IMG/VR virus record: IMGVR_UViG_3300043429_000467
Reading direction: 5' to 3' (one strand)
Source of the DNA: a virus
DNA: 64,000 nucleotides
The translations under genes and the position numbers were made by a program. Numbering within the stretch: the stretch's first letter is position 1; every line of letters starts with the position of its first letter. Positions 1 to 58,721 of the stretch are shown piece by piece. Below the pieces are notes generated by a model. That model was not told where the DNA came from. It made no database searches and worked only from the letters and a program-made list of their open reading frames with translations.

Positions 1-3000
1 AAAGTTATCAGTTAAGATACCATACTTAGAACGTTCTAATCCGTTAGCATCTAAAACTTTAGTATCAGTCGCAGATTTTTCTAGTCCAGTTAATGCAACA
101 TAGTATTCCAAACTCTTAATACGATTTTCAAATGCACCAATATCTTTCATCGTGAATCGACGATTGTTTTTAAAGTCTGCACGAACTTCTTTAACTGATT
201 CTGTGTAAGCAGGAATAGTTAATGTGTAAATCAACATATCTTGTTGGTCTACTGGTGGTGCAATAGGTTTAACTGAAGGTTTACCTTTAATTACAGCAAA
301 TTCACGTGAAGGTTTAACTACAAGTTGGTCGATACGAGACAAGTAGTATTCAGCATTTAGTGTAGCAACACTATCAACATCAACGTTAACTGCACCGCTT
401 AAAGTGTCTGAACCAATTGTTCTAGATGGTCTAAAGTCTAATGCTGAACGAAGTGGAGTTACTTTACTATCAGATTTGTTATTGAAGTATGGAACTTCAG
501 CATATGTAAAGTTAGAACCAGATTTCAAATAAGAATCAACAGTAAACAAACCATCAATTTGTGGTGATGGTGCTGATTGGTGTTTCAAGTATTTGTATTG
601 AACATAGATGTTACCACGAGGTGAACTATATCCACGTTTAAGTTTGATTGTAGCATGGTCGTAATGTGTTTTTCTTTGACCATTATCAAACTCATAACTT
701 GATGTAACATCATGTGCATCACTTGTTAACATTGCAGTTGTTAAGTTTGATGAAGTTGATAATGAATCTGTAATACGAACAATTTGATATACATCAGGAA
801 CTTGTAAGCTTACAGTTTTACCTGGTGTTCTTAAATCTAATAATGCCGCAGTCTCATTGAAGAATGTTGCGCCAATATCAGTAAATACAATACCAACGTT
901 AGATACAGCAACTTGATTCACAGAATTAGAAGCATCTAATGTGTCTGTTCCATCTAATTCAACAGGAACTTTATCGTGCATCAATGGTAATAATGGATTT
1001 AATTGTTTGCCACGAATAGCACCAGTTGTTCCGTTTTCTGCATTATTAACTTTAGTTTTAACGATAAAGTCAGCACGAACACCGATAGTGCCCATATCAA
1101 TACTTAATGTCGTAGGACTTACTGCCGTAACAGTGAAGTAATTATTAGCTAAACTTAATATAGTGTTTGCAACAATACCAGAAGTACCGTTTGAAGCTGT
1201 GTTATAGTTTGTGAAACAAATAATGTTATTAATAATTGTTGAATCATCTAATACGCCACCTGCACCTGCAAAGGCGAAAGTATCAGTACCTTCAGTAGAA
1301 AGTGTGATGATACCTGAAGCGTCAGATACTTTAGAAGCGTATAATTTACGAGCATAGAAGTCTAGATTATCAATAGAATCTTCTTTAACCGCATCAAAAG
1401 GTAAATCAAAAATCAAACTTTGTCTATTTGGTTCTGAGATATATGCAAAACCTGTTAGAGTATCTTTAGAATCAGCATCAATATTTGCCGCAAAAGTTTT
1501 TGATAAACCATTACGTGAGATTACAGATTCAGCAACTTTAAAGTCTGAAACGATTGCAAAAGTGTTTGCGCTTGATGGTGTAAATGGTAAACTAGATGAT
1601 AAGAAAATAGTTTTATTTGAACCATTTGACGAAGCGATTTTAATTGGAGAAATAGAAGCACCGCCAGCATCAGTGATGCGGAAGTACATATTAGCATATG
1701 CATTATCTCCAGTAGTACTTGAGAAGCTTGCTGGTAATGTAATAGTCTGTGTGTTTGAAGCACTTGCTATAGTACCAGTAATAGATGAACCATTAACATC
1801 AAATACGTTTGTAGATAATGAGAAGGTTTGTCCGTTAGCAGAATCTGTAGAGTCGTTATATTTAACAGTACTTACACGAAGAGAACCGATTAAAGTTGAA
1901 GTGTACGCTGTATTTGTTGATACGTTTACGTTTGTTACAGGAACACAGTGAATATCAAACTTAGGAAAGTCTGTGATTAATAAACTACCACTAATATCTT
2001 TAAAAACAACAGAACTTCTTACCGCTGTAGGTAAGTCGTAATCTGCAATATTCGAAGTATCTCTACCTCTATCAACAGTGATTGTTGACGGTGCAATTGT
2101 TTGGAATTCATAACCACCAACATATGCTTTACCTGGGTCTAATACAGCAGAAAATTTACCTGTTTGTAAATTATTGTTAGCATCGAAGCTTTCTTCTTGT
2201 AATGAAATTACAAATGGGTCAACTGTATAGTTACCTGATTCATCAAAAGTACGACGAGCAAGTGTTTTTTCAATTTCGCTGTAGATTGGATATTCAATCT
2301 CTTTAGTTTTAACACCATTTACAATACGAATGATTTCAAAGAATGAAGATGTATCAGCAGAATCTAAAGTGCGTTTTGCTAGTGTTGTTGTAATTTTATA
2401 ACGATTTGCACCTGGTGCTTGATAGTTATATGCACCTTGCGCTGGGTCTAATAAAGATGAATCGTCGATATAATCAACAATAGATTCTTCAAACTCGATA
2501 CCAATTTTGTATGATGGTTGTGTAAATACTGTAGCTGATTGGTGACCAATTCTATAAAACGTTTCTAATACTAAGAATTGAGGACTAACTTTAACAAATT
2601 GTCCTTGGAAGTAATATACACCATCTTGGATGTTTGCAACGTAAGAACGACCAACAGCGTTAGCTGAAACTAATTGAGCAAAGTAGTTTTGTCCGTAAAC
2701 TTTAAGTTCATCATTCTCAGCAAATAACTCACCACTTAAATATTTTAAAATAAGAACTGGATATGCACCTGAAGTATCGACAGCGATAACTTTGGCACGA
2801 ATCTGTTTTGTTGAATTATATGATATAATAGTTTTATCTAAGAAATCACTAGCATTAATATCTATACCATTATATTGTGTGTTCAATGTGATATAGTTTG
2901 CTCTATCATCTAAAGAAATTTTACCGCCTACAATAGGACTACCACTTTTGAAAATGTGATTACCAAATTTTTCAATTTGATTAGATAAAATTGTTTGTAG

Positions 3001-3114
3001 TTGTGTTAGTTCACGTGCCTGAACAGAATATCCTGGTTGAAACAGAACTCTTAAAAAGTTCTTGTCTTCATCAAAGTCATCGTAATATGGCTGATAGTTG
3101 AACGTGGTTGTCAT
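1..3114 (-). CDS. Large baseplate/tail-fibre-like structural protein, partial; start codon at 3114, continues beyond window start (>1030 aa in window)
   Basis: Continuous minus-strand reading frame with no stop from 3114 to position 1 (N-term MTTTFNYQPYYDDFDEDKNF...); consistent with no complete minus ORF listed in the track. RBS-like AAGGT upstream. Lies downstream of the gp8 homolog in the baseplate module. Thr/Ser/Asn-rich, as in fibre/wedge proteins. Confidence 0.5.
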   Translation of the reverse strand, partial: MTTTFNYQPYYDDFDEDKNFLRVLFQPGYSVQARELTQLQTILSNQIEKFGNHIFKSGSPIVGGKISLDDRANYITLNTQYNGIDINASDFLDKTIISYNSTKQIRAKVIAVDTSGAYPVLILKYLSGELFAENDELKVYGQNYFAQLVSANAVGRSYVANIQDGVYYFQGQFVKVSPQFLVLETFYRIGHQSATVFTQPSYKIGIEFEESIVDYIDDSSLLDPAQGAYNYQAPGANRYKITTTLAKRTLDSADTSSFFEIIRIVNGVKTKEIEYPIYSEIEKTLARRTFDESGNYTVDPFVISLQEESFDANNNLQTGKFSAVLDPGKAYVGGYEFQTIAPSTITVDRGRDTSNIADYDLPTAVRSSVVFKDISGSLLITDFPKFDIHCVPVTNVNVSTNTAYTSTLIGSLRVSTVKYNDSTDSANGQTFSLSTNVFDVNGSSITGTIASASNTQTITLPASFSSTTGDNAYANMYFRITDAGGASISPIKIASSNGSNKTIFLSSSLPFTPSSANTFAIVSDFKVAESVISRNGLSKTFAANIDADSKDTLTGFAYISEPNRQSLIFDLPFDAVKEDSIDNLDFYARKLYASKVSDASGIITLSTEGTDTFAFAGAGGVLDDSTIINNIICFTNYNTASNGTSGIVANTILSLANNYFTVTAVSPTTLSIDMGTIGVRADFIVKTKVNNAENGTTGAIRGKQLNPLLPLMHDKVPVELDGTDTLDASNSVNQVAVSNVGIVFTDIGATFFNETAALLDLRTPGKTVSLQVPDVYQIVRITDSLSTSSNLTTAMLTSDAHDVTSSYEFDNGQRKTHYDHATIKLKRGYSSPRGNIYVQYKYLKHQSAPSPQIDGLFTVDSYLKSGSNFTYAEVPYFNNKSDSKVTPLRSALDFRPSRTIGSDTLSGAVNVDVDSVATLNAEYYLSRIDQLVVKPSREFAVIKGKPSVKPIAPPVDQQDMLIYTLTIPAYTESVKEVRADFKNNRRFTMKDIGAFENRIKSLEYYVALTGLEKSATDTKVLDANGLERSKYGILTDNF

Positions 3115-3124
3115 TTTTTACCTT

Positions 3125-4453
3125 TTAAAAACTTATTATAAATCGAATTTTATCTATTTGGTTATCGTCTCGACTGATTTTTTCTTTTTCAGAAACGAAT
3201 AGTATTTTACCAGAATACTTTTTCATCTTAGGTTCTGTAACACTTGATGCAATACGAGTAGCACCAGATGTAAATCCTTTAATTGCTTGGTTTACTGCTA
3301 GTGTTCCTTTAAGATTATTTACATATAGTTTATTGTTAACTTCATCAAAAGAAACTACTTCGGCTGAAAATGATGATGAGCCGTATGTTAAACCTTGAAA
3401 CACAATTTCATCGTTACTGAAATCACCAATACCTGGTGAAGTATTTATAGTCGTATATAATGGGTAATATTCGTCTGTACATAATTCACCCGTAGTAGCA
3501 TCAACGGGATTATGTACTAACAATACTTCACGAAAGTCATTGTCTGTTGGATATATTCCATTAGGACCAGGACCTTCAAACTGAATACATGTCATAATAT
3601 TATTAGCACCCAATTCATAAACTGGGTCAAAACCGTGTCCGTTTTGTGGTGAAATTTTAATTACAGCTTCAGCACCTGAACCATTGCCGCCAGAAACATC
3701 TGAGAATCTAACATTCGCACGAGTGTAATTTTCACCTCTATTTTGAATAATGATGTCACTAACTCTACCACTAACAACGTTAGCTTTTAAAATAGCACCA
3801 GTTCCATCACCTTCAACGGTAATAATACTTTGAACAGGACCACTCACATAATTGTTACCTGCATTCGTGATATTAACAACATCAATACTTCCATTGATAG
3901 CGGCATCAGCTACGAATTTGTTTGTTAACGCTGGCATCCAATCTTCATTCATAAACCATTGTTTTTCGAATGATGAAATTGTATATAAGTATTTCCACCT
4001 ATATGAATCAGCAGTAATAATATAAGGTTCTTCAAGTGAAGTTGTTGATAATACTAGTGATGGTTCAGCAGTTGATTGAGCACCATTATTATTAAATAAA
4101 CATTTAAAAACTTGGTCATTAGAATTCTTTACATAAAAATTTGAGCTAGATTCGTATGTGTTATATACTGTATTTGCTCTCCAGTCGATTCTAGGAACAA
4201 CATAGTTAGCATTAACTAAAGAAGCAACACGAGCACCGTAAGCACGTCTCCAATATTCATTCAAATCATCAATAGATTCACCAGGAGTTGGAACAATTTC
4301 TGTACCTGAATTCCATGGAGTTTGTTTACCAATAACAGCGAATACATATGATTTTCTGTCGGCTGGTAAATATGAGTTTGCACCAAGATTAAGCAGATTT
4401 AAAAACTGCGTGGTCATTAGTGTTCTGAAGTTTTTTGTGATTAGATTATTCAT
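3125..4453 (-). CDS. gp8: Baseplate wedge protein, T4 gp8 homolog
   Basis: Motifs FAVIGKQTPWNSGTEIVPTP and VVPRIDW resemble T4 gp8 (FITFGRSEPWSSNENEV, VIPRRDW). Synteny after the gp6/gp7 homologs. Confidence 0.65.
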   Translation of the reverse strand: MNNLITKNFRTLMTTQFLNLLNLGANSYLPADRKSYVFAVIGKQTPWNSGTEIVPTPGESIDDLNEYWRRAYGARVASLVNANYVVPRIDWRANTVYNTYESSSNFYVKNSNDQVFKCLFNNNGAQSTAEPSLVLSTTSLEEPYIITADSYRWKYLYTISSFEKQWFMNEDWMPALTNKFVADAAINGSIDVVNITNAGNNYVSGPVQSIITVEGDGTGAILKANVVSGRVSDIIIQNRGENYTRANVRFSDVSGGNGSGAEAVIKISPQNGHGFDPVYELGANNIMTCIQFEGPGPNGIYPTDNDFREVLLVHNPVDATTGELCTDEYYPLYTTINTSPGIGDFSNDEIVFQGLTYGSSSFSAEVVSFDEVNNKLYVNNLKGTLAVNQAIKGFTSGATRIASSVTEPKMKKYSGKILFVSEKEKISRDDNQIDKIRFIISF

Positions 4454-4465: not shown

Positions 4466-7225
4466 TTATAGATTTTCTAAAATAGTTATTACAGAATTAG
4501 AATTTGTTCTGAAATTTACGTCTACTGTAATGGTATTACTTGAAACATTTGAAACTGTTCTAACTTCATTGTATATAATTGAAAGATTTATGGTGTTTGC
4601 AGTAATATTAAGTGTGTTTGCAATATACAAATTATTAGCACTAATAACATTAGATACAACAACAGTATTTCCAGATTCTAGATAAATCGTATCACCTTCA
4701 AGAAGGTCATTAATAAAGTTTGTATTTGTTCCGTAAATAACATTACCTGATACATTAATAGTACCATTGATTTGTCGTGATATGTTTGTTAAAATTACAG
4801 TATCACCAACAGTTACTGTATTTGCTAAATCAACAGAAGTGTTAGCAATCATCAAGTTAGAACCATTTGACACATTAAATGTAGGAGATAATGTAGTAAC
4901 AATTTGATGACTAACATTACCTTGACCTAATACTGAAACTTCATGAGTCTCAATTCTAGTAGCAAAAACTTTCATACCTGCCGGATGAATTATATTTGAT
5001 ACTGTATTCTTAAAGAATTTATAATCATAATTAGATTTAATCGCATAAGTGAAGTTGTTATATCTAATAGCATCTTGAAGTTTTTTATCCCAATTCAAGA
5101 AACCTTCAGTATTCAAGTAAATACCAGGATATCTAATTAGACCATTTTCAAATTTAGCAGTCGCTCTAGCTAAACCGTTTCCGTAATATGAAATTGAATT
5201 TGAAACAACGTTAGCTGAAATTAAACCATCGTCTGTAATTAAAGGAAGACTTTCGTTTAAAGTACCTGCATAATCAAAAATTCTTAATGAATTATTAGCT
5301 TCAAAATATCTATCAACATAAGCGGTAAATGTTGAAACTGTGTTTGATGCACCTTGATAAATTTTTGTGTTTGTTGAAAAAACTTGGCCGGATGTGATGT
5401 TACTAACAACTAAATCAGCATTTCTTAAAGAAACTGTAGGTGTTTGAACATAGTCATAACCATAACTAGATACTTTTAATTTTGAAATAGCACCAATTCT
5501 ACTTGTCGCTAAATCTAATTCTTCACCGTCACCTGCAATTTCAGTAACTCGAATAACAGCGTTTGAGCCGTTAGCTGAAACTACTGATACTGAAGGTAAC
5601 AAAGCTTGAGTATAACCTTCACCTGCAATAATATATTCATTATTAGCTGGCGCAACGAACGCCACTTCAATAATTGTATTTGAATTAGAAGCGTCTACTT
5701 GAGTAACAATAGCATTAGCACCATAACCTGTTCCTCCAGTGAATACTAGAACATCGTTTGCTCTATAGTTTTGACCACCAGATTCAATTTTTAATCTACC
5801 TAAAGAACCTAATCTGTCAAGTCTTTTTCTCAAGAAAGAATATACTTGAGCATTCACTAGTTCGTTTTCTAGAGGTGCCTCAAATGTTACTGTGTTTGCA
5901 GTTACTGTTTGTACTGTTCGAACGGCTTCGTATCGTGAAGGAATAACAAATTTAAAAGATTCACCTGGTGCAAATTTTGATGTTAAATCAACAGAAGAGT
6001 TTACAAAATACGATGCTCCGTTAGTTACGTTTACTGTATTTAATAATAAAACTTCGTTTGAAATCAATTCTTCAGCATATAAACTTAATACATTGGTTTC
6101 AGGTTTTCTAATATAACCGACACCTTCACCAGTAACAGTTAAGTGAGATATTGGTTGAACGTCGAAAGATTGTAAGGTTGATAAAGATAAAATACTATTA
6201 CTTTCAACGTTAGCAATCGCAATAACATAAATTGTTTCTAGTGTAGTTCTACTTACGTTCATTTGACGTGCGTTTGCTGTGTCAACCAAATCGATATTAG
6301 CAACGGCTTCAGTAACATCAGATATACTTTGGAAACCGCCTCTAAAAACAACTAGACTTGAATTTGGGTCTGTGATAGGATTTCTAAATCCAAAGCCTTC
6401 TTTTTTTACCCAAATATCTGTTACAGAACCTTGAGTAACTTCACCTACAGTTGCAATAGCACCAATAGGAGTATTTGCGATACCATCAAAACCACCAACA
6501 ATAGAAACAGGGTCACCTACTTTGTAATATAAACCTCTAGCATCAGGGTTAATATTAATTTCAGATAAAGAACCAACTAATCGTCCTGTTACTGTAACCG
6601 GTAAGTTATTATCATCATAATAAGTTGAATATACAGTCTCACCTGTAGAAAATGTTCGGTCAACATTTGAAACATAAACTTCAATGTATTGAATACCTAA
6701 TTGTCTATCAATAGACTTAACAACGTTTTCAACAATAGCTGTAGCTTTTGATGTAACACCAGTTAATTTTGTTTTTGTAATATTAAATATGTTTGTGTCG
6801 GCTGTATCGATACGTAGTGCTAAAGGTAAAGCCCAACGACCATCAGACGCTTTAAAAATATCATCTTTAGGTAAATAGATATCAATATTCTCATTAAATA
6901 GTGTTCTGAACAAGAATTTGATTGCTGGTACAGTACCTTTAGATTTATAAAATTCTGTGGCAAACTTTAAGAATTTTCTTTTATCTAGAGCAATATCTAC
7001 AGGTAAAAAAGGTAATAATTCTTTTTTAAGTTCTTCGATATAAAAATCATCAGCTAAATCAATATTGTTAGCGTTTTGTAAATCACCGGCTTCTTTTGAA
7101 ATGTTTGAATTCTGCTCAGTCCATTCATAGTATTTCTCTAAGAATGTGACGAACATAGGATATTCACTGCGAATGAAATCCGGGATTTGTGATTTGACTA
7201 TACTAGAAACTAAGATGTCGGTCAT
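4466..7225 (-). CDS. gp7: Baseplate wedge protein, gp7-like (919 aa)
   Basis: Size and position between the gp6 and gp8 homologs, as in the T4 order 6-7-8. No motif-level match recalled. Confidence 0.45.
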   Translation of the reverse strand: MTDILVSSIVKSQIPDFIRSEYPMFVTFLEKYYEWTEQNSNISKEAGDLQNANNIDLADDFYIEELKKELLPFLPVDIALDKRKFLKFATEFYKSKGTVPAIKFLFRTLFNENIDIYLPKDDIFKASDGRWALPLALRIDTADTNIFNITKTKLTGVTSKATAIVENVVKSIDRQLGIQYIEVYVSNVDRTFSTGETVYSTYYDDNNLPVTVTGRLVGSLSEININPDARGLYYKVGDPVSIVGGFDGIANTPIGAIATVGEVTQGSVTDIWVKKEGFGFRNPITDPNSSLVVFRGGFQSISDVTEAVANIDLVDTANARQMNVSRTTLETIYVIAIANVESNSILSLSTLQSFDVQPISHLTVTGEGVGYIRKPETNVLSLYAEELISNEVLLLNTVNVTNGASYFVNSSVDLTSKFAPGESFKFVIPSRYEAVRTVQTVTANTVTFEAPLENELVNAQVYSFLRKRLDRLGSLGRLKIESGGQNYRANDVLVFTGGTGYGANAIVTQVDASNSNTIIEVAFVAPANNEYIIAGEGYTQALLPSVSVVSANGSNAVIRVTEIAGDGEELDLATSRIGAISKLKVSSYGYDYVQTPTVSLRNADLVVSNITSGQVFSTNTKIYQGASNTVSTFTAYVDRYFEANNSLRIFDYAGTLNESLPLITDDGLISANVVSNSISYYGNGLARATAKFENGLIRYPGIYLNTEGFLNWDKKLQDAIRYNNFTYAIKSNYDYKFFKNTVSNIIHPAGMKVFATRIETHEVSVLGQGNVSHQIVTTLSPTFNVSNGSNLMIANTSVDLANTVTVGDTVILTNISRQINGTINVSGNVIYGTNTNFINDLLEGDTIYLESGNTVVVSNVISANNLYIANTLNITANTINLSIIYNEVRTVSNVSSNTITVDVNFRTNSNSVITILENL

Positions 7226-22487: not shown

Positions 22488-22991
22488 TTAATTGTTTAAC
22501 AATTCTTTCAATCTAGCTATAGTTACGTTCACATCTTTGTGGTAGATACCTTCACCACCTGCTTCAATGAACTGTTTAATGTTATCTTCTGTATCATCAA
22601 TCAACACAGCACCGGCTTCAGCATACAATTTTTTCTTGCTACGACCAGACACAATGTTAGGATGATATGGAATGCCGTGCTCACACAGCCAAATAATTTT
22701 GTCTTGTTCAACAATATTGTGGTATTTCTCACCACCGCTTGAAGACAGAATCTCAATCTCTACATCAAGACCTTGTAGAAACTCAAGCAATTCTAAAGCA
22801 CCTTCATGATAATCTAAACAATTGAAATGATGTCCTTCAACGAACTCAGTCCAATGTTCTGAGAATTGTTTATGTGCTCGAACTAATGCAGGGTCAGTAC
22901 CGAAGATTTCTCGATAACGACGTTCAAAATCAGACAGTACTCCGTCCATATCTAAATAAATTTTATTAATCATATACACACTTTCTCTCAA
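22488..22991 (-). CDS. HAD-superfamily 5'(3')-deoxyribonucleotidase-like protein
   Basis: N-terminal YLDMDGVLSDF (HAD motif I, DxDGV). 167 aa, typical of NT5C-type nucleotidases found in T4-like phages. Confidence 0.6.
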   Translation of the reverse strand: MRESVYMINKIYLDMDGVLSDFERRYREIFGTDPALVRAHKQFSEHWTEFVEGHHFNCLDYHEGALELLEFLQGLDVEIEILSSSGGEKYHNIVEQDKIIWLCEHGIPYHPNIVSGRSKKKLYAEAGAVLIDDTEDNIKQFIEAGGEGIYHKDVNVTIARLKELLNN

Positions 22992-26732: not shown

Positions 26733-27449
26733 CTAATCTCCATTCCAATTTTTATACCAGCGATTAAATGCACTAATCATTGATTCATCTTTTCGCCATT
26801 CACAAGACCAACCCATGCGACCGCCTTTCCATGAACCTGCACGTTCACCTAATTCAATATCAGAATTACAGTCAACAGTACGTTGAATCTTTCTAAACAA
26901 AGGAAGCCAAGTAAACCACTTCATTCTCCATTCACGTTCTTCACCAGCTAATCTAATCTTAGCAACTTGTTTCTTACCTGTTTTAGTATAGTGAATGACA
27001 TCAACAAACTTAGCACATTCTACTTGAGTTCCTGATACTCTAGTTTTCTTCTTAGTTTTCTCAAATACATCAAACCATGTAATATATCTATTCTTTTGTC
27101 CTAGTCTATATTTTGGATAGTTGTTTCTATGATATAAACTACCGTTAGGTAAAAGCAAGTCATGTCTAACAATTGTATATTGCCAAGGCATGTCAAAAGT
27201 AATCCATCTATCACCTTTACCTAAGTAAATCCAAAACATATCACTATGAAATGAAAAGCCATACCTTGGAGAAGACTCTCCAAATTGTCGATAAATCTTA
27301 ACTTTGATGAATTTAATAGGAATATTTACGTACAATCTATACAGCGCAAATGTTAGTTTTAAGTATTTGTCATCAAATTGTTCAGTAGGCCAATCTAAAG
27401 TGATTGAAAAGAATTTAAAATCGGACCAGGCAGTATATATTTTATTCAT
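26733..27449 (-). CDS. Hypothetical protein (238 aa, Trp-rich)
   Basis: Intact ORF; no recognisable motif. Confidence 0.35.
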   Translation of the reverse strand: MNKIYTAWSDFKFFSITLDWPTEQFDDKYLKLTFALYRLYVNIPIKFIKVKIYRQFGESSPRYGFSFHSDMFWIYLGKGDRWITFDMPWQYTIVRHDLLLPNGSLYHRNNYPKYRLGQKNRYITWFDVFEKTKKKTRVSGTQVECAKFVDVIHYTKTGKKQVAKIRLAGEEREWRMKWFTWLPLFRKIQRTVDCNSDIELGERAGSWKGGRMGWSCEWRKDESMISAFNRWYKNWNGD

Positions 27450-28493: not shown

Positions 28494-28706
28494 TCAAACT
28501 CCAAACAAAACATCACCAGCATCTGGTGGAAATGTAGAACCCCATGACGCAATAAAATTAACATCATTCATTTCATCAAGACCTTCTACTGCCGCAATAT
28601 AGTATTTGATACCTTCATAGTCTGTTTCAACTCGAACAATACCTACATTAGTTCTTCCACAAAACCATTTATAATCAAGTACTCTCTTCATAATAAAAAA
28701 CCTCAT
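28494..28706 (-). CDS. Small hypothetical protein (70 aa)
   Basis: Intact ORF. Confidence 0.25.
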   Translation of the reverse strand: MRFFIMKRVLDYKWFCGRTNVGIVRVETDYEGIKYYIAAVEGLDEMNDVNFIASWGSTFPPDAGDVLFGV

Positions 28707-28720
28707 CTATTAAGATGAGG
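28695..28720 (-). terminator. Rho-independent terminator (minus strand)
   Basis: aaaaaa-CCTCATC-tattaa-GATGAGG immediately after the stop of gene 28752-29021. Confidence 0.6.
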
Positions 28721-28751
28721 TCAGTCTATATCAAAACACAATTCTTGTCAA

Positions 28752-29021
28752 CTAGTACCACTTGGCTTCGTCTACACCTTGTTCAACATCTTTAATCATA
28801 ACAAACTGAGCAAGCATCAAGAAAGCCCACCAAAACGTAATCTGCATCAATCCGTGTACGATTCCTTCACTTAAAGTCACTTGAAATGTCTCAAGTAAAC
28901 CTATCGTCCAAAAAGTAACACGATACCAATTACGTTCATTTAACCACTCTTTTACAGTATACCACATTTTAAATCTCCAGTATTTTATCAACAATAAAAC
29001 CATCTTTATTCTCATCACCAT
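28752..29021 (-). CDS. Small membrane protein (89 aa, 2-3 TM segments)
   Basis: Hydrophobic segments. Followed by a hairpin terminator at 28695-28720. Confidence 0.3.
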   Translation of the reverse strand: MVMRIKMVLLLIKYWRFKMWYTVKEWLNERNWYRVTFWTIGLLETFQVTLSEGIVHGLMQITFWWAFLMLAQFVMIKDVEQGVDEAKWY

Positions 29022-29766
29022 AGCCGTATGGATTCGAGACTAATCTTGTACCATCAATCATAAAATCAAAAGATGTGTGAGTATGTCCAAATAACCACAT
29101 ATCTATACCAGGCATATAATGTTCCATATCTTGAATAAAGTATGGATTCAATGCAGACTTTTCAAATTGAGGTGCTAGTGCCTTATATGTAGGCACGAAA
29201 TGACTAACAACAACTCGCTTTTTATGGTCATTCTTTTTCCAATAACCTAACTCTTTACAGAATTTTTGATGTGCTTCACGATGGTCTTCAGTATTCCATC
29301 TAGGATTAAAATTTAAATATTGTTCTTCAGATACTAGATTCTCTAATCTAATTTCTTTATGTATAACTGAAAAATCAGGTATGTATCTAACACACAAACT
29401 ATCAATATCAGCACCTTCAAGATTTGTGTACATGATACCACCGAAGAATGAGACATCATCAATCGTTACACTACTATCATTTAAATAATAGAAGTTGGCA
29501 TGAGTCTCATCAATACTCTTTAGATTCTCATGTACTGCTTGAAAAGAAGCACCGTATGCTTCATGGTTACCAGCAACCATAACCACTTTAGCATCACTTG
29601 CAAGAATTCTATGAATAAGAGAAAGATGTCTGCCTTGCGTGTGTATATCACCAGCAAGAACAACAACATCTTCACCTAGATTTTCATATTCAAAAGGATT
29701 AGCACATATCGGTGCCTTGTTGTAAGGCATCTCAAGGTGCATATCTGATAGTAATCTAATTTTCAT
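28969..29766 (-). CDS. Calcineurin-like metallophosphoesterase
   Basis: Motifs LSDMH, LAGDIHTQG (GDxHG-like) and GNHE. Start overlaps the stop of the upstream ligase gene (operon). Confidence 0.7.
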   Translation of the reverse strand: MKIRLLSDMHLEMPYNKAPICANPFEYENLGEDVVVLAGDIHTQGRHLSLIHRILASDAKVVMVAGNHEAYGASFQAVHENLKSIDETHANFYYLNDSSVTIDDVSFFGGIMYTNLEGADIDSLCVRYIPDFSVIHKEIRLENLVSEEQYLNFNPRWNTEDHREAHQKFCKELGYWKKNDHKKRVVVSHFVPTYKALAPQFEKSALNPYFIQDMEHYMPGIDMWLFGHTHTSFDFMIDGTRLVSNPYGYGDENKDGFIVDKILEI

Positions 29767-30794
29767 TAATCATCATTCTTCAATAAGAATTTATTAGAAA
29801 TTGCTTTGAATGAATTCTTACCATCAACTGATTTGAATACAACACCTTCAGCTTCAGTTTGTTTGTTCAAGTAAGATTTAAACTCAGCATTTGTTAATAC
29901 ATAATCGATAGTCCAGTTATTCTCTTTGAAGTTAATCGAATGAGATATAATAGGAGTATGATTAATACCTAATTCCATAGATAAACATAATCGTTCTTTA
30001 GGATTGTAGTATTCTTGTTTATCGATATCATATATATCAAACAAATAGAAGTCAAGTTCAGAAAGATTGTATTTGTTACCTTGTACTCCTGGTCCTACAA
30101 GTTCACCTTGTAACGCAAGATTCTTACCTGTTGATTTAATCTTATCAATGAAACTTTCACGTAACGCAACTTTCCAGAATGAATTCTCTTCAGTCTCTTT
30201 TAGATTTAGATTACGTGAACAGACACCAGATTCTTCACCGTTAACATATACAGTCATAGATGAACCATCAAGTTTCTCAGTCATTTCCCATTCAACACCT
30301 TCTTCTTGCCACTGAGTATACTCACGTTTCAAGTTTTGAATACGTTCTTGGTCAGTCTTACGGATGAATGAAGGAAAACTACCACGACTAATACCAGCTA
30401 ATTGTGCTGGCATCTCACGTTCCCATTTCTGAATCAGCAGATTATCAGTCAAGTCTAAGTCTTCTTCAACTTGAGAACCTGCACCATCATAAACTGATTG
30501 AGGAATAGGCATCAAAAGACCTTGACTTAATTGTCCTCGTAAACGAATAGTCTTTAGTCTTTGTCCTTCGACACCATTATAAACTTTAGGAAACTGACCA
30601 GGCTTAGTTAAGAATGGAGCAAGTTCATTAGGAATCCATGAGTCAATCTCAAAGTATACTGCTAGGTCACCAGCTTTATACTCATTCTTTTTGACTACAA
30701 CTTTCCATCCACCAACTGTTGCTACTTCAATAGCATCAGCACCAAGGATTGCACTAATCTCATCAATTTTAACTACTCTGGCTAATTTTCTCAT
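29766..30794 (-). CDS. ATP-dependent RNA ligase-like nucleotidyltransferase (N-terminal OB-like domain plus KxDG ligase domain)
   Basis: Motif I MTEKLDGSSM (KxDG). Domain order resembles DraRnl/Rnl5-type ligases. Co-operonic with the metallophosphoesterase. Confidence 0.5.
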   Translation of the reverse strand: MRKLARVVKIDEISAILGADAIEVATVGGWKVVVKKNEYKAGDLAVYFEIDSWIPNELAPFLTKPGQFPKVYNGVEGQRLKTIRLRGQLSQGLLMPIPQSVYDGAGSQVEEDLDLTDNLLIQKWEREMPAQLAGISRGSFPSFIRKTDQERIQNLKREYTQWQEEGVEWEMTEKLDGSSMTVYVNGEESGVCSRNLNLKETEENSFWKVALRESFIDKIKSTGKNLALQGELVGPGVQGNKYNLSELDFYLFDIYDIDKQEYYNPKERLCLSMELGINHTPIISHSINFKENNWTIDYVLTNAEFKSYLNKQTEAEGVVFKSVDGKNSFKAISNKFLLKNDD

Positions 30795-30963
30795 TTTAAG
30801 ATTCTAAAACTCACTATTAATTGAACAATAACAACTAAAGGTAATAGTCCACAAGCTAAAGCAAATAAAGCACCTTGTGTTGTTTTTGTTCTATTTAGAA
30901 CAAAGTCCATAATTTTCATTGCAGAAAACAAATATGCAAAGAAAGCTAAGAAAATTACAATAA

Positions 30964-31335
30964 TCATTTGTTTACCTTTTTAGGTTGTGCTTTCACATAT
31001 TCGACAAACTTTTCTGCTAATCGATTATGTTCTTTTTGTGAACAATAGAATATCCATTGTCCTACTGAAACATTACCGCTATCATCTTTACCTCTTTGAT
31101 AACCAATCACAGTATGTGGTGTACGGTTATCAATAATACGTTCAATTGAGAAAGCATTTAAAGCTTTAAAATCAAATTCAAAAGTAGAACCGTCTAAGTC
31201 TTTTTTGAATTCATATTCTTTAATATCTTTTAGTTTAGTGATTTCTTTTTTTAAGTCTCGCACTTGCGCTTCTAAATCACCAATAAGTTCAACATCTTCT
31301 TTACTTCTAAACATAATCTTACTCCTTTTTACCAT
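30964..31335 (-). CDS. Hypothetical protein (123 aa)
   Basis: Intact ORF. Confidence 0.3.
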   Translation of the reverse strand: MVKRSKIMFRSKEDVELIGDLEAQVRDLKKEITKLKDIKEYEFKKDLDGSTFEFDFKALNAFSIERIIDNRTPHTVIGYQRGKDDSGNVSVGQWIFYCSQKEHNRLAEKFVEYVKAQPKKVNK

Positions 31336-31894
31336 ATAATAACATCATCGCATCATAAACACAATCATCAATAGGATTATGTTTAGTAATATCTAGTGCC
31401 GAATTAAAACCTTCATAATCAACATCACAATAACCATTATCAGAACCTGTCAAAAAGTCAACTGCGGTTCTTACATCTCGCCATTTACTATAATGAAAGA
31501 TAGGTTCAAGACCTAGTTTCTCTTCAATAGAATCAAGTACTAGCTGGTCAAGATTACCTCGTGCCCATACTGTACATGTTTTATGGTTAGGAAAACGCTG
31601 TGCATATTGACGCATTCTTTCATAACCTTCTTCAATCTTAATATCATGTTCAGAAGGTTTAAATGAAGCAATTTTAACGTTCAGACATTGTTTAGCCCAC
31701 CACTCAAGTGAAGACTTTGTGACTGTTCGTTTTAGTCTAGTCATTTGGTCTTCAGCATCAAGCTTCACAAAGAATGCATTATCTCGCAACTCTTTATGTG
31801 AAGGTTTCTTATCAGGGTCAAAGTAAATCAACGACATCGACAAAATCACTGCCGTTGATTCTTTACCTAGCGTTTCTACGTCGAAGATAAACAT
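31319..31894 (-). CDS. DnaQ-like 3'-5' exonuclease (T4 DexA-like)
   Basis: Exo I motif MFIFDVETLG (DxE); ~190 aa, as in exonuclease A of T4-like phages. Confidence 0.6.
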   Translation of the reverse strand: MFIFDVETLGKESTAVILSMSLIYFDPDKKPSHKELRDNAFFVKLDAEDQMTRLKRTVTKSSLEWWAKQCLNVKIASFKPSEHDIKIEEGYERMRQYAQRFPNHKTCTVWARGNLDQLVLDSIEEKLGLEPIFHYSKWRDVRTAVDFLTGSDNGYCDVDYEGFNSALDITKHNPIDDCVYDAMMLLYGKKE

Positions 31895-32703
31895 TATTTA
31901 ACGTTAATCAAAGGTGCTACGTTCATACCTGCTGGAACAACAACTGTGTGAGTACCGTTATTATCAGCAAACTTTTGTAAAGCAATGTTAGCTTCATGCT
32001 GTAGATATTCACGTGTTAATGAACCGTTGATAATCTGGTTAGCTTTTGAAACACCTTCTGCTTTAGTAATTTCAATCTGTGCTTGTTTCTTAGCAATCTC
32101 TTCTTGAACACTCATTTGCTCTAGTTGCTTTTGTGCCGCTACAGCTTTTTGAATTTGTTGTTCGATACTAGGGTCAGTTACAATGCTACGAGCAACAACA
32201 CGAGTAATCGTGAATGTATCAGGGTCATTTGCATTTAGTTCTTTCTGCACGTTTTCTTTGATTGTTGTCTCAAGTTCATCACGTTTTGTGTGAATCACTA
32301 AAGAGTCGTAGCGGCTGATTGTGTCATACACTACGCTTCGTGCAATGTTTTCGACCATCACACTACCTGGATAATAGATACCACTGTTATATCCACTTTG
32401 ATTACTATACTTAACTTTTAAAGAAGGAATCTTTTGACCGTTTGTTTTATAGTAAATCGCAACATCCATATCTTTAAGACTTAGATTGTCTTTAGCTTTA
32501 GGTGTCAAGTTAGATAGTTCTAAGTTAGTTTCTTTAGTTGTATATTCATCAACATTAGAAAAGAAGCTTGTATAGAAACCTGTATCAACTGGCTCCATAT
32601 TCACAGTACCGAATGTTGTTCGAACACCTACGTTACCTTGGTCAACAATACCGCATCCAACCAAAGCCATTGTTAAAGCACTTACTAGCATCACTTTTTT
32701 CAT
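31894..32703 (-). CDS. SPFH/band-7 (prohibitin/HflC-like) lipoprotein
   Basis: Start placed at MKKVMLVSALTMALVGCG (lipobox LVGC), which carries an AGGAAA RBS. C-terminal coiled region EQMSVQEEIAKKQAQIEITKAEG is typical of SPFH domains. The track ORF extends 27 codons further upstream. Confidence 0.55.
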   Translation of the reverse strand: MKKVMLVSALTMALVGCGIVDQGNVGVRTTFGTVNMEPVDTGFYTSFFSNVDEYTTKETNLELSNLTPKAKDNLSLKDMDVAIYYKTNGQKIPSLKVKYSNQSGYNSGIYYPGSVMVENIARSVVYDTISRYDSLVIHTKRDELETTIKENVQKELNANDPDTFTITRVVARSIVTDPSIEQQIQKAVAAQKQLEQMSVQEEIAKKQAQIEITKAEGVSKANQIINGSLTREYLQHEANIALQKFADNNGTHTVVVPAGMNVAPLINVK

Positions 32704-33020
32704 TATAAATTTCCTTCTAAAAACATTAAAAAAGATAGCACAATCGCAACGACTGCACCAATTACAAACACTCGTCTTCCCCATTTCTTAGTTTCTGTTT
32801 TCGATGTTACTGAAAGCAAATAACCAAAACTTACGAAAAAGAATGTAAAAGTTAACCACAAAATAAAAAATTTAGCCATTATACGTTATTCACCAATCTA
32901 TGTTTTTTCCTGTTGCAAACACTGCAAAACGTATATTGTCGTTCTGCATACCCATATGGTTTATCACACATTTCCCATCGATTATAGAAATGCACAAAAG
33001 GAATTAAGTGTAAAATCTTT

Positions 33021-53723: not shown

Positions 53724-55742
53724 ATGAAAAAATTACTTAATCCATGGTTAGCGTTAATAACGTTAACTTTATTAGTAGTAATCAGATTGGCAGACTTCAG
53801 TTTTATCGAGTCTGTCAGATTGCGATATTTTGACACATTAATTACAAGTGAATCTGTAAAGGTTTCTGAACAAATTCACGTTGTAAATATAGATGATAAG
53901 TCCATAGAAAAGTATGGACAATTTCCGTTTCCTAGAGGTGATTATGCGAGCATTATTGATTCTTTGTATGACCGTGGCGCTGGGCTGGTTGTTTTTAACT
54001 TGTTTCTACCTGATAGTGATAGGTTTGGACAAGATGGTAGACTTACTTCTACCCTTAACAAACACCCTGTAGTATTCCCACAAGCTGGTTCTACTGATAA
54101 ACAAAAAGCTATACCATTTAGACCTGGTGTTTCTGAGATTGGAACACCAGCTTCTAATTTTGCAGTATCTTATCCAAGTATTTTAACTAACATAAAACAA
54201 ATTAATGAAAATGCCGCTGGCATTGGAGTAGTGAATGTATTACCTGAAATTGATGGTGTTGTCCGTCGTGTACCTATGGTCGTCTCAAGCAATGGCGTAT
54301 TGTTTCCCTCAATCACACTTGAAACTTTGCGAGTTGCTTCCGGAGACCCAAGTTTCCAAGTCAAGTCAACAGATTACGGTATCGAGGCCGTCAGAATACC
54401 TAGCTTCAGAAAAGTTGAAACTGACTCTTTCGGACGAGTTTGGATTGACTGGTCCACTAAGCCTACCGAACACAGTCTTGTTGATTTACCCAAGTCCTTT
54501 GATGGGACAATCGTCATTGTTGGACTCAGTGCTAAAGGACTCAACAATCCTGTCGCAACAGCAAGAGGAGAGGTCTATCCGCATTATTTACAGGCAAGCG
54601 TTCTAGATACACTTGTATCAGGTAAAAATATTAGTAGACCTGACTGGTCAAATGGTGTAGAATTATTATTGACAGTTATTCTGTCTGTGATATCTATATT
54701 ATTAACTAGGTGGAAATATGGCTTTATTGCTTTTCTTGCTATCATTGCTGGTGTTGTGGGTGCTTCTAAAGGTGCTTTTGTTTACTATTCGTATCTTCTT
54801 GATTGTATTTTTCCTGTGTTTTGCTTGGGTATTGTTTATTTACATGTGTATACAGTTAAGTTCGTAAGCGAATTAAATCAAAAACTTCAAATCAAAAAAC
54901 AATTTGGCACATATCTGTCGCCAGCACTTGTTGAAAAACTTCAAAAGAATCCTGAATTATTAAGACTTGGTGGTGAGTCTCGTGAACTATCTATTATGTT
55001 CACCGATGTTAGAGGCTTCACTACAATCTCAGAACACTATGGTAAAGATGTTCAAGGATTAACTCAAATTATGAATCGCTACATGACAGCGATGACCGCA
55101 AAGATTATTGAGAACAACGGAACACTGGATAAATACATTGGTGATGCTCAGATGGCTTTCTGGAATGCACCACTTGATGAGCCTAACCACGCTAAATTGG
55201 CATTGAAAACGGCTCTAGAAATGATGGAGAGTTTAGATGCGTTTAATAAAGAGATTCAAAAAGAGGGTATTCCGGCGTTTGGTATGGGACTCGGGATTAA
55301 TACTGGCACTGTTGTCGTTGGTAATATGGGTTCTAGCCAACGCTTTGATTACACCTGCTTAGGTGATGCTGTTAACTTAGCGTCACGTTTAGAAGGACAA
55401 TCGAAACCTTATGGTGTTAAAATCATATTAGGTTCGTTAACTGCTGAACAAGTTAAAGATGAATATCCAGTTGTTGAGTTAGATTGTATTGCTGTTAAAG
55501 GTAAAACAGAAGGTGTTAAGATTTATACTCCTTGTGTTTATCAAGAAGAGCATTATAAGTTACACAAAAAATATCTAAAATCATACTATGATGGTATTTG
55601 GGATTCAGCAATTTTCTTTGCTAAAGATTTAGAGATTAATGGTCCTACAGAATTACGTCAATATTATCATAACATGATAGAGAGAATGCTTGAAGGTAAA
55701 CCTGAAGATTGGGATGGTACGTATAGAGCAACTAGCAAGTAA
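53724..55742 (+). CDS. CHASE2 sensor-domain class III adenylate/guanylate cyclase (membrane-bound)
   Basis: N-terminal TM, periplasmic CHASE2-like region, 3-4 TM helices, then a cyclase homology domain (FTDVRGFTTISE...KYIGDAQMAFWNAP...GINTGTVVVGNMGS...YTCLGDAVNLASRLE) with both metal-binding Asp residues. Confidence 0.8.
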   Translation: MKKLLNPWLALITLTLLVVIRLADFSFIESVRLRYFDTLITSESVKVSEQIHVVNIDDKSIEKYGQFPFPRGDYASIIDSLYDRGAGLVVFNLFLPDSDRFGQDGRLTSTLNKHPVVFPQAGSTDKQKAIPFRPGVSEIGTPASNFAVSYPSILTNIKQINENAAGIGVVNVLPEIDGVVRRVPMVVSSNGVLFPSITLETLRVASGDPSFQVKSTDYGIEAVRIPSFRKVETDSFGRVWIDWSTKPTEHSLVDLPKSFDGTIVIVGLSAKGLNNPVATARGEVYPHYLQASVLDTLVSGKNISRPDWSNGVELLLTVILSVISILLTRWKYGFIAFLAIIAGVVGASKGAFVYYSYLLDCIFPVFCLGIVYLHVYTVKFVSELNQKLQIKKQFGTYLSPALVEKLQKNPELLRLGGESRELSIMFTDVRGFTTISEHYGKDVQGLTQIMNRYMTAMTAKIIENNGTLDKYIGDAQMAFWNAPLDEPNHAKLALKTALEMMESLDAFNKEIQKEGIPAFGMGLGINTGTVVVGNMGSSQRFDYTCLGDAVNLASRLEGQSKPYGVKIILGSLTAEQVKDEYPVVELDCIAVKGKTEGVKIYTPCVYQEEHYKLHKKYLKSYYDGIWDSAIFFAKDLEINGPTELRQYYHNMIERMLEGKPEDWDGTYRATSK

Positions 55743-56251: not shown

Positions 56252-56274
56252 ATTAATCTTTCAATTGGTGGGCC

Positions 56275-56352
56275 CCGTGGGATTCGAACCCACTGTCTAT
56301 CGGTTATGAGCCGATTGCTTATACCAGATTTAAGCTTGAGGCCCGAATATGG
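56275..56352 (-). tRNA. tRNA-Met or Ile2 (anticodon CAU)
   Basis: Hand-folded cloverleaf: CCA encoded; T-arm GTGGG/attcgaa/CCCAC on the plus strand; anticodon loop ctCATaa. Confidence 0.6.
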
Positions 56353-56358
56353 AGCGTC

Positions 56359-56433
56359 CTGCGGGAATCGAACCCGCCTCTTCAGCTTGGAAGGCTGTAA
56401 TAATACCACTATACCAAGAACGCATAACGGATG
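56359..56433 (-). tRNA. tRNA-Gly (UCC)
   Basis: Cloverleaf with T-arm GCGGG/aatcgaa/CCCGC; anticodon loop ctTCCaa. Confidence 0.6.
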
Positions 56434-56700
56434 AAAAAGCAAGTAAAAGACGGGACAATGTACATTAGAAGGGCTATGCCACTAAACTCTAAGACAATCA
56501 ACAAACCACAATAATCAAAACCTGCATATTAGTTAGAAACAAAACACAAAGTCGTCGTTTATAATACTAACACACGCAGAACGATTTCAGGTCGTTTTGG
56601 ATTTGGCGTCCATACTGGAGAGAAATTAATCTCATCTTAGTCAATTCTCATCTCTTTTTCATGCCGAGTAGATTTTTTGAAGAAAACCTACCAGAAAAAC

Positions 56701-57267
56701 TTAAAGAATACCTGCTTTAGTTAGTGTTTCCACTACGTTATCAGGTAACTCAATCTCAGTCTTAATATTCAATTCAAGAATCTTATCTTGAATTTTTTGC
56801 TTCTCTTTTTTGAATGTAGAAACATTCTTTTTAGCAATAGAAATATTACCTTCAGTACATACGGTAGTAGTTACTTCATCGGCTCTACCATATACACTTC
56901 TAGTAGTATCTGTATTGTTTTTAATCTTATCAAGCTTACCTTCGACAATATTAATAGCTGTCGCTGGTGCTGAAGTTGCTATGTTTTGATGTAGATGAAT
57001 AGTCTTTTCAATCAATGCAACATCACTTAACAAATCATTAATTTGATTTGCGTTTGCTTTACCAACTAGTTTTCTAATCGTATACAAACTAACATACAAA
57101 TCATTATTTACCTCAAAAGCTGTTAAATAATCTTTGTTTGCTTTATCAAACTTTTCAGATACATTTTCAAACTCATTGAATGTAACCATATTGTTTAGCT
57201 GATTATTCTTAATAGTATCAAGAATAGTTTGTTGTAATGCATTTGCTTTTCTAAGCGTAATTTTCAT
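56701..57267 (-). CDS. Hypothetical protein (188 aa) inside the tRNA region
   Basis: Intact ORF; predicted helical/coiled. Confidence 0.3.
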   Translation of the reverse strand: MKITLRKANALQQTILDTIKNNQLNNMVTFNEFENVSEKFDKANKDYLTAFEVNNDLYVSLYTIRKLVGKANANQINDLLSDVALIEKTIHLHQNIATSAPATAINIVEGKLDKIKNNTDTTRSVYGRADEVTTTVCTEGNISIAKKNVSTFKKEKQKIQDKILELNIKTEIELPDNVVETLTKAGIL

Positions 57268-57275
57268 AATAACTC

Positions 57276-57461
57276 CTAATGTGCTAAAATCTTAAAGCAC
57301 TTAAATTTAATAACTTTTGTTGTACCTGAAGCCATCTTCTTAGCTTCTTCACCTGCGGCAACACATTCTTGTTGTGAAAAGAAACCTGGTACATTAGTTA
57401 ATGCCATCGAATCAGTATCACTCATCATACCTGCATGTGCAAACAATAATAAAACCCACAT
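57276..57461 (-). CDS. Small secreted hypothetical protein (61 aa)
   Basis: Signal-peptide-like N-terminus. Confidence 0.25.
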   Translation of the reverse strand: MWVLLLFAHAGMMSDTDSMALTNVPGFFSQQECVAAGEEAKKMASGTTKVIKFKCFKILAH

Positions 57462-57483
57462 AATAAATCTCCAATAATAAGAA

Positions 57484-57559
57484 TGGTGTCCCCGGAGAGA
57501 ATCGAACTCCCGTATAATGCTTTAGAAGAGCACTGCGTCATCCACTACGCTACGAGGAC
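57484..57559 (-). tRNA. tRNA-Arg (UCU)
   Basis: Cloverleaf folded by hand; anticodon loop ctTCTaa. Confidence 0.55.
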
Positions 57560-57594
57560 ATTTGAAAGCATATTACTATACTTTACTTTAAATG

Positions 57595-58155
57595 TCAAAT
57601 ATATCTACTATGTTTAGGTAGTTTAGACTTTAAGTATTCCATTTGGTCAGCAACTACGTTTCTATTCTGTAGAATAAAGTGTTCCCATCTACAAGGTCTG
57701 TAAGGTAAAAACAACAATAACATATTAGCTTCTTCAGGTGTTCTATCTGCTTTCTTAGAGTTACAGTGCTTACATGAAGACACTGAGTTTTCCCAAGCAT
57801 TAGAACCACCACGACTTCTTGGATGTACGTGGTCTCTAGTCAAATCTTTTGATTCAAAGAATAGTCCACAGTAAGCACATAAGTTATGGTCTCGTCTGAA
57901 TAACAAAAAGTTACCGTGAGCATTCACAGTTTCTTTAGTATGCAATCTTCGAGTTTCACCTCTTACTGAGATGATAGACTTGATACTGATTTGAGATTGT
58001 AAACCATTCTTTTGATAGCCGCCATGAAACACTTGAAACTCAGTACCTAAGTCCCAAACAACTTTATCTGAGGCGTAGTAATGCACCGCTTCTTCGGGCA
58101 TCAGCCACTTGAAGGGATTACCTGCAATATCTAGTCCTAGTATACGTGCTTCCAT
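57595..58155 (-). CDS. HNH homing-type endonuclease
   Basis: CAYCGLFF...DHVHPRSRGGSNAWENSVSSCKHCNSKK (HNH motif with flanking Cys pairs). Inserted between tRNA genes. Confidence 0.75.
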   Translation of the reverse strand: MEARILGLDIAGNPFKWLMPEEAVHYYASDKVVWDLGTEFQVFHGGYQKNGLQSQISIKSIISVRGETRRLHTKETVNAHGNFLLFRRDHNLCAYCGLFFESKDLTRDHVHPRSRGGSNAWENSVSSCKHCNSKKADRTPEEANMLLLFLPYRPCRWEHFILQNRNVVADQMEYLKSKLPKHSRYI

Positions 58156-58204
58156 GATAGTCTCAAAAAAATAATTTAGATGTTATATGTATATATCTTT
58201 AAAA

Positions 58205-58718: not shown

Positions 58719-58721
58719 AAA

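Follow-up and report, generated by a model that had tools for sequence, protein, structure and literature searches.

The stretch of DNA considered here is a window of 64,000 nucleotides from IMG/VR record IMGVR_UViG_3300043429_000467; the window is this whole stretch, and all analyses of it were computational. Two adjacent genes on its minus strand are the subject of this report. The first encodes a 342-residue ATP-dependent RNA ligase of the Rnl5 family (29766-30794), recognised from its open reading frame (ORF) and from matches in the PDB, NCBIfam and PHROG collections. Directly downstream lies the second, for a 265-residue binuclear metallophosphoesterase (MPE) of the phrog_1649 family with a predicted PptH-like fold (28969-29766). 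An earlier note, made from the sequence alone, had placed two ORFs overlapping at a start codon at 28969-30794, and they lie exactly there: both are on the minus strand, and the TAA stop codon of the ligase gene and the ATG start codon of the MPE gene have one base in common (TGATGATTAATGAAA; TAATG). The assignment of the ligase proved to be routine, and its functional link to the MPE is unproven and weakly supported.

A search of the PDB with the ligase sequence matched the Naegleria gruberi enzyme NgrRnl (5COT and its mutants), with E=1.4e-81 and residues 1-342 aligned to residues 4-339. The protein scored 200.7 bits with the NCBIfam model TIGR02306 (RNA_lig_DRB0094), passing the equivalog cutoff of 151.15, and 23.2 bits with the Rnl2 model TIGR02307, far under the cutoff of 197.15. 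In PHROGs it matched phrog_968, annotated 'RNA ligase', with E=1e-96. Two Pfam domains follow one another in the protein: an N-terminal OB domain that is the signature module of Rnl5 (PF21189, PHA02142 OB fold; residues 4-97, 30504-30785 on the minus strand, E=2.2e-29) and then the nucleotidyltransferase domain (PF09414, RNA_ligase; residues 168-332, 29799-30293 on the same strand, E=4.1e-30), with no C-terminal appendage. Motif I reads K174-L-D-G, and the codon of its lysine occupies 30273-30275 (minus strand). The N-terminal OB-like domain, the KxDG motif and the call of an ATP-dependent RNA ligase in the earlier note were therefore sound. No match to PF09511 (RNA_lig_T4_1, the Rnl1 type) was found in the protein. 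Identity as a DNA ligase was considered and rejected; the score with DNA_ligase_A_M was 15.5 bits, below the cutoff of 26.2, and the ATP-dependent DNA-ligase model was far under its threshold. Classification with hidden Markov models thus assigned the protein to Rnl5 and not to Rnl1, Rnl2, the DNA ligases or the capping enzymes. Since the ligase fell below the DNA-ligase threshold, the DNA ligase or capping class that the earlier note had named as speaking against its proposal was not encountered.

When the phage ligase was aligned with NgrRnl, all nine of the active-site residues that contact ATP or metal in the latter were found to be kept. The OB-domain contacts R2, D51 and K123 correspond to R4, D53 and K121 of NgrRnl, with K123 lying just downstream of the PF21189 match; R151, just upstream of the PF09414 match, corresponds to R149; and K174, D176, E231, E316 and K330 correspond to K170, D172, E227, E312 and K326. 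Eight of the nine (R2, D51, K123, R151, K174, E231, E316 and K330) were invariant across 26 phage ligases. From the NgrRnl match, the TIGR02306 score, the domain order and the nine residues, the protein is, at the level of sequence, a full-length bona fide member of the Rnl5 family, with all of the defining features examined at that level present. Characterised Rnl5 enzymes seal nicks with an RNA 3'-OH and a 5'-PO4 in duplexes (PMC4408790, PMC5397189), and their N-terminal domain is required for adenylylation and for overall nick sealing (PMC4408790). The Rnl5 of Deinococcus radiodurans helps the cell to survive ionising radiation and to reassemble its genome afterwards (PMC5397189). This literature mentions phage homologues without having studied them, and the physiological substrates are stated there to be unknown (PMC4408790, PMC5397189). 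In isolate phages the ligase family was represented by 346 records, mostly from Pseudomonas and Aeromonas phages among the matches listed, and among T4-like phages Rnl5 is sporadic. The window ligase is 48-51% identical to its nearest isolate-phage homologues, and its similarity to the Naegleria gruberi protein is of like order, which suggests, as far as sequence similarity can indicate, that the gene has moved between phages or bacteria on the one side and protists on the other.

The MPE was called a calcineurin-like phosphoesterase in the earlier note, and this assignment was upheld. The protein matched Pfam PF00149 (Metallophos) with E=3e-12 and 47.9 bits, against a cutoff of 21.5, and matched phrog_1649 (metallo-phosphoesterase) in PHROGs with E=5e-40. 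For both proteins the profile matches are strong and well outside what chance would give. The five motifs of the calcineurin-like superfamily are complete (D8-x-H10, G39-D40, G-N67-H68-E69, H189 and G-H228-x-H230). As to the individual motifs named earlier, GNHE is exact and GDxHG is an approximate match, the actual sequence being GDIHT. Residues D40, N67, H68, H189, H228 and H230 were invariant in 42 homologues, and D8 and H10 were kept in at least 90% of them. A sequence search of the PDB with the MPE gave nothing meaningful, and a profile search of PDB sequences placed PptH (the phosphopantetheinyl hydrolase of Mycobacterium tuberculosis, Rv2795c) first, with a weak score (E=0.028). An AlphaFold2 model built on the 42 homologues was confident, with a predicted local distance difference test score (pLDDT) of 91 and a predicted template-modelling score (pTM) of 0.90, and in a structural search with this model PptH was the clear top match.

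PptH is an Mn/Fe phosphodiesterase that hydrolyses bis-pNPP (bis-p-nitrophenyl phosphate) and not the monoester pNPP (p-nitrophenyl phosphate), and it has been described as unique to mycobacteria (PMC8557913). The phage MPE is 15% identical to it, and nothing suggests that the phage protein acts on carrier proteins. Judged from the model, the MPE is predicted to be an Mn/Fe-type binuclear phosphodiesterase and is not of the PPP-clade or lambda-phosphatase type used by Clostridium Pnkp, whose phosphatase belongs to the lambda-phosphatase class. Comparison of the model with BFVD located the same fold family (TM-scores of 0.7-0.84) in further phages and also in giant viruses that infect eukaryotes, among them Terrestrivirus, Pandoravirus, Pithovirus, Marseillevirus and Yasminevirus, with no function assigned in any of them. 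Isolate phages contributed about 190 records of the MPE family, among the matches listed mostly from large Vibrio, Escherichia, Rhizobium, Synechococcus and Caulobacter phages; among those matches the hosts of the ligase and MPE families overlap little. A PADLOC search gave no informative match for either protein, its single hit being short and generic. As a separate observation, a 190-kb T4-like contig (L098) carries at 860-3687 a cluster of an AAA_33 kinase, an Rnl1-type ligase (PF09511) and a 184-residue MPE, which ends 1.3 kb upstream of a member of the window MPE family (5001-5756).

The distribution of the pair was surveyed in other genomes, and the figures that follow are raw counts from loci that are not phylogenetically independent. 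An MPE gene lay within 6 kb of the ligase gene in 3 of 80 IMG/VR ligase loci (adjacent in one, L023), leaving 77 without. From the other side, 86 IMG/VR loci of the MPE were inspected, and a ligase gene lay within 6 kb in one, as a fragment about 5.7 kb away, with 85 lacking it. At bacterial ligase loci, which included metagenome-assembled genomes, a match to the MPE profile within 6 kb was found in 2/80. As an internal control, other genes of the window were counted at the 80 viral ligase loci: the MPE (3/80) was as frequent as a GDSL hydrolase (3/80) and an endolysin-like gene (3/80), and a Band_7 gene was found at 11/80. No ligase gene lies beside the MPE in homologues at 55-58% identity (L094, L095 and L084), and at 45-49% identity, in T4-like contigs, the MPE has unrelated genes as neighbours. 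Within 5 kb of the ligase, no gene is annotated as a phosphoesterase in S-CREM1, DC31 or pf16, the nearest of the isolate phages that carry it; most of the neighbours there are hypothetical. Because the pair is rare in these surveys and absent at 55-58% identity, the sequence comparisons indicate that it is not a conserved cassette and is confined to a few lineages.

A motif scan and PHROG, Pfam and NCBIfam scans of the window were used to look for a kinase, an HAD-type Pnkp or a second ligase. No polynucleotide kinase was found in the 64 kb, in which the sole ORF with a Walker-A motif is that of PhoH; the remark in the earlier note that a kinase module was not evident is thus borne out. Neither a second ligase nor an HAD-type Pnkp was detected in the window, the proteins seen being PhoH, an NT5C-type HAD protein and a cytidylyltransferase-like protein. 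The single HAD protein (22488-22991) is an NT5C-type nucleotidase that lies about 6 kb from the pair. There is no Hen1-like gene next to the pair, and the neighbouring ORFs that were scanned had no methyltransferase-family match.

Downstream of the MPE gene is a small hydrophobic ORF of 71 codons (28752-28967, minus strand), whose ATG lies one base past the MPE stop codon and with which the local unit apparently ends. A terminator-like hairpin with a 10-bp stem followed by a T run lies 3' to it (28699-28722, minus strand) and may end the local transcription unit at 28722-28699; it was detected by a consensus scan alone, in which 7 sites were found against 2.7 expected. The local unit appears to run from the ligase through the MPE and the 71-codon ORF to this hairpin and T run, with its end placed by that scan only. 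The corresponding promoter scan (46 sites against 45.8 expected) was uninformative. Upstream of the ligase are two small ORFs of 58 and 123 codons (30791-31335, minus strand), with overlaps of 4 nucleotides between the two and at the start of the ligase. The product of the 123-codon ORF has no Pfam or PHROG match, and homologues of it were found in three metagenomic contigs (L092, L094 and L095); L092 also has a 58-codon ORF in the equivalent place just upstream of the ligase. These two small genes separate the ligase from a gene for a 191-residue Rv2179c-like DEDD 3'-5' exo(ribo)nuclease (31319-31894, minus strand; Pfam PF16473, E=2.4e-17; phrog_255, exonuclease), an arrangement also seen in L092. 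Next to this is an SPFH/Band_7 lipoprotein-like gene (31894-32784, minus strand), which in other viral contigs occurs near Rnl5 more often than any other gene of the window (the 11/80 of the control above), a recurrence that may be plain shared synteny.

A homologue of the Acb3-family inhibitors of the cyclic-oligonucleotide-based antiphage signalling system (CBASS), 238 residues long, is encoded 1.5 kb downstream of the MPE (26733-27449, minus strand; Pfam PF25187, 91.8 bits with the cutoff at 27). In contigs L092 and L093 its synteny with the ligase-MPE pair is preserved, and it marks the block as accessory or anti-defence. Overlaps of 1-17 nucleotides occur at nearly every gene junction on this strand from 25.8 to 34.1 kb, and this is normal packing for T4-like early genes. 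Since nearly all junctions of the block overlap, the TAATG overlap is not distinctive of the pair, and we rejected it as a sign of pair-specific translational coupling.

The ligase and MPE genes sit in a long minus-strand run of small early or accessory genes. The window has a G+C content of about 33%, and megablast of 24 kb of it against an isolate-phage collection gave no match, so there is no annotated close relative in that collection. Its genes include those for T4-type baseplate wedge proteins and for a tail-tube cap, together with a gp32-type single-stranded DNA-binding protein, PhoH, exonucleases and a T4-type RNase H. The gp6-like baseplate protein shares 40-44% identity with its counterparts in Methylophilales phage Melnitz and in the Pelagibacter phages Mosig and HTVC008M. 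From the baseplate and other T4-type gene content and this degree of identity, the source is, by its sequence, a novel T4-like aquatic myovirus and a distant relative of the pelagiphage-type phages HTVC008M, Mosig and Melnitz. At 56266-62452 (minus strand) 24 tRNA genes form a cluster, with small ORFs interspersed; it covers 20 amino-acid specificities, of which Met, Arg, Leu and Ser each have a second copy. This set is large for a T4-like phage and could be a sign of codon adaptation or of resistance to host defences that cleave tRNA. Beside the tRNA block, at 53724-55742 on the plus strand, lies the gene of a 672-residue protein that combines a CHASE2 sensor domain with an adenylate/guanylate cyclase domain. 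The protein shares 38% identity with proteins from Pelagibacter phage HTVC008M and Methylophilales phage Melnitz, and its cyclase domain matches the Pycsar PycC models of PADLOC (E=1e-25).

The interpretation that we favour, with a confidence that stands about midway between doubt and acceptance, is that the MPE is an autonomous accessory enzyme lying beside an Rnl5 nick-sealing ligase, rather than the healing partner of that ligase. By homology with NgrRnl and DraRnl (the D. radiodurans enzyme), the phage Rnl5, whose catalytic residues are intact, would react with ATP to form a ligase-(K174)-AMP intermediate. The AMP would then be passed to a 5'-PO4, and a nick with an RNA 3'-OH strand would be sealed in an RNA:RNA or RNA:DNA duplex. 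Suitable ends could be left by metal-dependent nucleases or by ribonucleotide patching of DNA and would require no healing, which fits the missing kinase. The MPE would be carried beside the ligase by chance of lineage, probably in the same transcription unit, and would not serve a dedicated tRNA repair cassette as its 3'-phosphatase half. The sequence analysis shows the ORFs, how their domains are arranged, that the active sites are conserved, the class of fold and where the pair occurs; the enzymatic activities, the co-transcription and the independence of function are what we infer here.

Several observations weigh against this interpretation and favour some partnership of the two proteins. 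In contigs L092 and L093, whose MPEs are 71% and 76% identical to that of the window, the order of ligase and then MPE, the overlap of the two genes and the downstream Acb3 gene are all retained; L092 retains the upstream exonuclease and Band_7 genes as well, and the L093 contig ends inside the ligase gene. An MPE of a clade that is 27-29% identical to the window protein has been brought next to Rnl5 in what looks like an independent juxtaposition. In L023 this MPE (306 residues, 27% identical) is directly downstream of Rnl5 with a 4-nucleotide overlap, and in L178 a copy 56% identical to the L023 protein lies one gene upstream of Rnl5, in reversed order. Further divergent MPEs lie 1.3 and 3.3 kb from Rnl5 in L078 and L081. 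In T4, moreover, pseT is not known to be kept next to rnlA, so that missing adjacency elsewhere is weak evidence against cooperation.

Genes for enzymes of end-healing type are also found near Rnl5 in other phages. A DSP-type cysteine phosphatase gene is present in 19 of the 80 viral Rnl5 loci (L004-L083); it is directly upstream of Rnl5 in six (L006, L014, L025, L026, L034 and L036), and in 11 further loci of the 19 it is separated from the ligase by NAMPT and NadM-like NAD-salvage genes. This DSP/PTP-type protein has about 164 residues, an HCxAGxxRSG motif and weak Pfam matches to DSPc, Tc-R-P and PTP-SAK. In L042 a 301-residue T4-Pnkp-like kinase-phosphatase (AAA_33 and HAD_PNKP, 1306-2211) is encoded 25 bp upstream of Rnl5 (2236-3225), and stand-alone AAA_33 kinases are encoded 0.3-1.5 kb downstream of Rnl5 in L016 (7328-7816) and L004 (8502-9011). 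These kinase genes show that other phages do have heal-and-seal cassettes based on Rnl5, as far as can be read from sequence. In Undibacterium (L209 and nine other loci: L215, L218, L222-L224, L227, L230, L232 and L237), Rnl5 is followed by a conserved 351-residue protein with no Pfam match and, about 2.6 kb downstream of Rnl5, by an RlaP-family RNA-repair nucleotidyltransferase (PF10127, E=9e-91). The pattern of neighbours resembles non-orthologous replacement of a healing partner, although the loci that make it up are not phylogenetically independent.

These findings make it possible, with a probability well short of that of the favoured interpretation, that the two proteins form a pair that cleans and seals ends with no kinase. 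The MPE would strip 3' blocks, such as a 2',3'-cyclic phosphate, a 3'-phosphate or damaged terminal nucleotides, and Rnl5 would seal the resulting 3'-OH/5'-PO4 nick; the 5'-PO4 would be already present, or a 5'-OH would be phosphorylated by a kinase encoded outside the window. Such a pair could counter host RNases or repair ribo-patched DNA, with a logic like that of LigD or Clostridium Pnkp. The MPE retains the histidine of the GNH(E) motif, which in work of Keppetipola and Shuman from 2008 is reportedly a determinant of 2',3'-cyclic phosphodiesterase activity in the superfamily. The 24 phage tRNA genes would fit pressure from host attack on tRNA, and a survey of jumbo phages noted that in a few phages the RNA-repair phosphatase appears to be provided by calcineurin-like domains (PMC7824862). 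However, more than 95% of the ligase loci have no partner within 6 kb, nor have about 99% of the MPE loci, and the MPE is no commoner near the ligase than are unrelated genes of the window. The nearest solved fold is that of a strict diesterase and not a monoesterase, and the MPE is not PPP- or lambda-phosphatase-like. No kinase is encoded within about 28-33 kb on either side of the pair, so that 5'-OH breaks made by metal-independent anticodon nucleases could not be sealed, and characterised Rnl5 enzymes require a duplex nick (PMC4408790).

A broader form of this idea, which we regard as rather unlikely, starts from the neighbours of Rnl5 in other phages. A slot for a healing partner beside Rnl5 would be filled interchangeably by Pnkp, stand-alone kinases, DSP-type phosphatases or a PptH-like MPE, and the MPE-Rnl5 pair would be a kinase-independent module for cleaning and sealing that arose here and independently in L023 and L178. 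The role of the module would be to mend structured RNA (stems of tRNA or rRNA) or ribo-patched DNA that nucleases of the host defence had cut.

It is improbable, though consistent with some features of the surrounding block, that the MPE is a counter-defence phosphodiesterase unrelated to the ligase, degrading the cyclic mono-, di- or oligonucleotides of host immunity from within an anti-defence block. Such a role has been predicted for calcineurin-like orthologues of T5 A1 (PMC7824862), and the Acb3 homologue lies nearby, in synteny in the relatives. One phage homologue of the MPE is annotated as a 3',5'-cyclic AMP (cAMP) phosphodiesterase, and JGI names relatives 'predicted phosphodiesterase', but these annotations are automatic. 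The top structural match is PptH and not a cyclic-nucleotide phosphodiesterase, and the lone PADLOC hit is the short, generic one mentioned above. We know of no anti-CBASS or anti-Pycsar nuclease with the MPE fold, and the occurrence of this fold in giant eukaryotic viruses argues for a more general substrate.

Least probable of all is a role of the ligase in phage DNA metabolism, sealing nicks with a short 3' RNA tract during replication, recombination or repair: NgrRnl and DraRnl accept DNA 5'-PO4 and template strands (PMC4408790, PMC5397189), loss of DraRnl makes D. radiodurans radiation-sensitive and slows its genome reassembly, with ligase activity required for protection (PMC5397189), the gp32-type protein, the T4-type RNase H and several exonucleases are encoded in the same minus-strand block, and in L178 an ATP-dependent DNA ligase gene lies just upstream of the MPE and Rnl5 genes, but elsewhere the neighbours of Rnl5 are accessory genes of RNA-repair type or for NAD salvage, and its sporadic occurrence in T4-like phages indicates that it is not a core replication gene.

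The locus adds a clean phage Rnl5, catalytically intact by its sequence, from an aquatic T4-like virus, and the comparative data place phage Rnl5 often beside enzymes of end-healing type that belong to several unrelated folds. If the MPE were the 3'-end-cleaning partner, the pair would constitute a kinase-free variant of heal-and-seal repair, and a widespread viral MPE family would gain a function. If the interchangeable slot were real, it would provide the first assigned function for an MPE family common to large phages and giant eukaryotic viruses.

The nearest characterised relatives of the phage ligase, NgrRnl (PDB 5COT) and DraRnl (DR_B0094), have the same length and two-domain architecture and likewise no C-terminal module. 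The phage enzyme differs from them in being encoded by a T4-like aquatic myovirus, and its activity is predicted from homology to these two. DraRnl has an operon partner, DR_B0095, with a DEDDh-exonuclease-like N-terminus (PMC5397189), whereas the downstream neighbour of the phage ligase is the MPE and the phage DEDD exonuclease gene lies two genes upstream.

The earlier note had likened the locus to the tRNA-repair systems T4 Pnkp/Rnl1 and Clostridium Pnkp/Hen1, and this analogy did not hold, the ligase being a duplex-nick Rnl5 and the pair not a conserved cassette. With T4 Pnkp (PseT) and Rnl1 the locus shares the general logic of a phage ligase accompanied by a phosphoesterase. The window ligase lacks PF09511, however, and no P-loop kinase is encoded in the window; the phosphatase of T4 Pnkp is of the HAD type (DxDxT), whereas the protein here is a binuclear MPE, and T4 Rnl1 acts on anticodon-loop or stem-loop breaks, Rnl5 on duplex nicks. 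The Pnkp/Hen1 system of Clostridium thermocellum likewise combines a calcineurin-type binuclear metallophosphoesterase for 3'-end healing with a ligase domain, but there the kinase and adenylyltransferase are fused and the 2'-O-methyltransferase Hen1 is a partner; the phage has two separate proteins and no kinase in the window. As there is no correspondence in ligase class, kinase, phosphatase class or Hen1, the locus is, by its gene content, not a member of either system. In bacterial non-homologous end joining, LigD combines an Mn-dependent 3'-end-cleaning phosphoesterase with a ligase whose preferred end is a ribonucleotide 3'-OH, and the process requires no kinase. The phosphoesterase domain of LigD differs in fold from the calcineurin-like MPE and its ligase belongs to the DNA-ligase clade, so that the analogy is one of logic alone and no homology is claimed. 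By analogy, the phage locus may work somewhat like the T4 and Clostridium systems or by the kinase-free logic of LigD.

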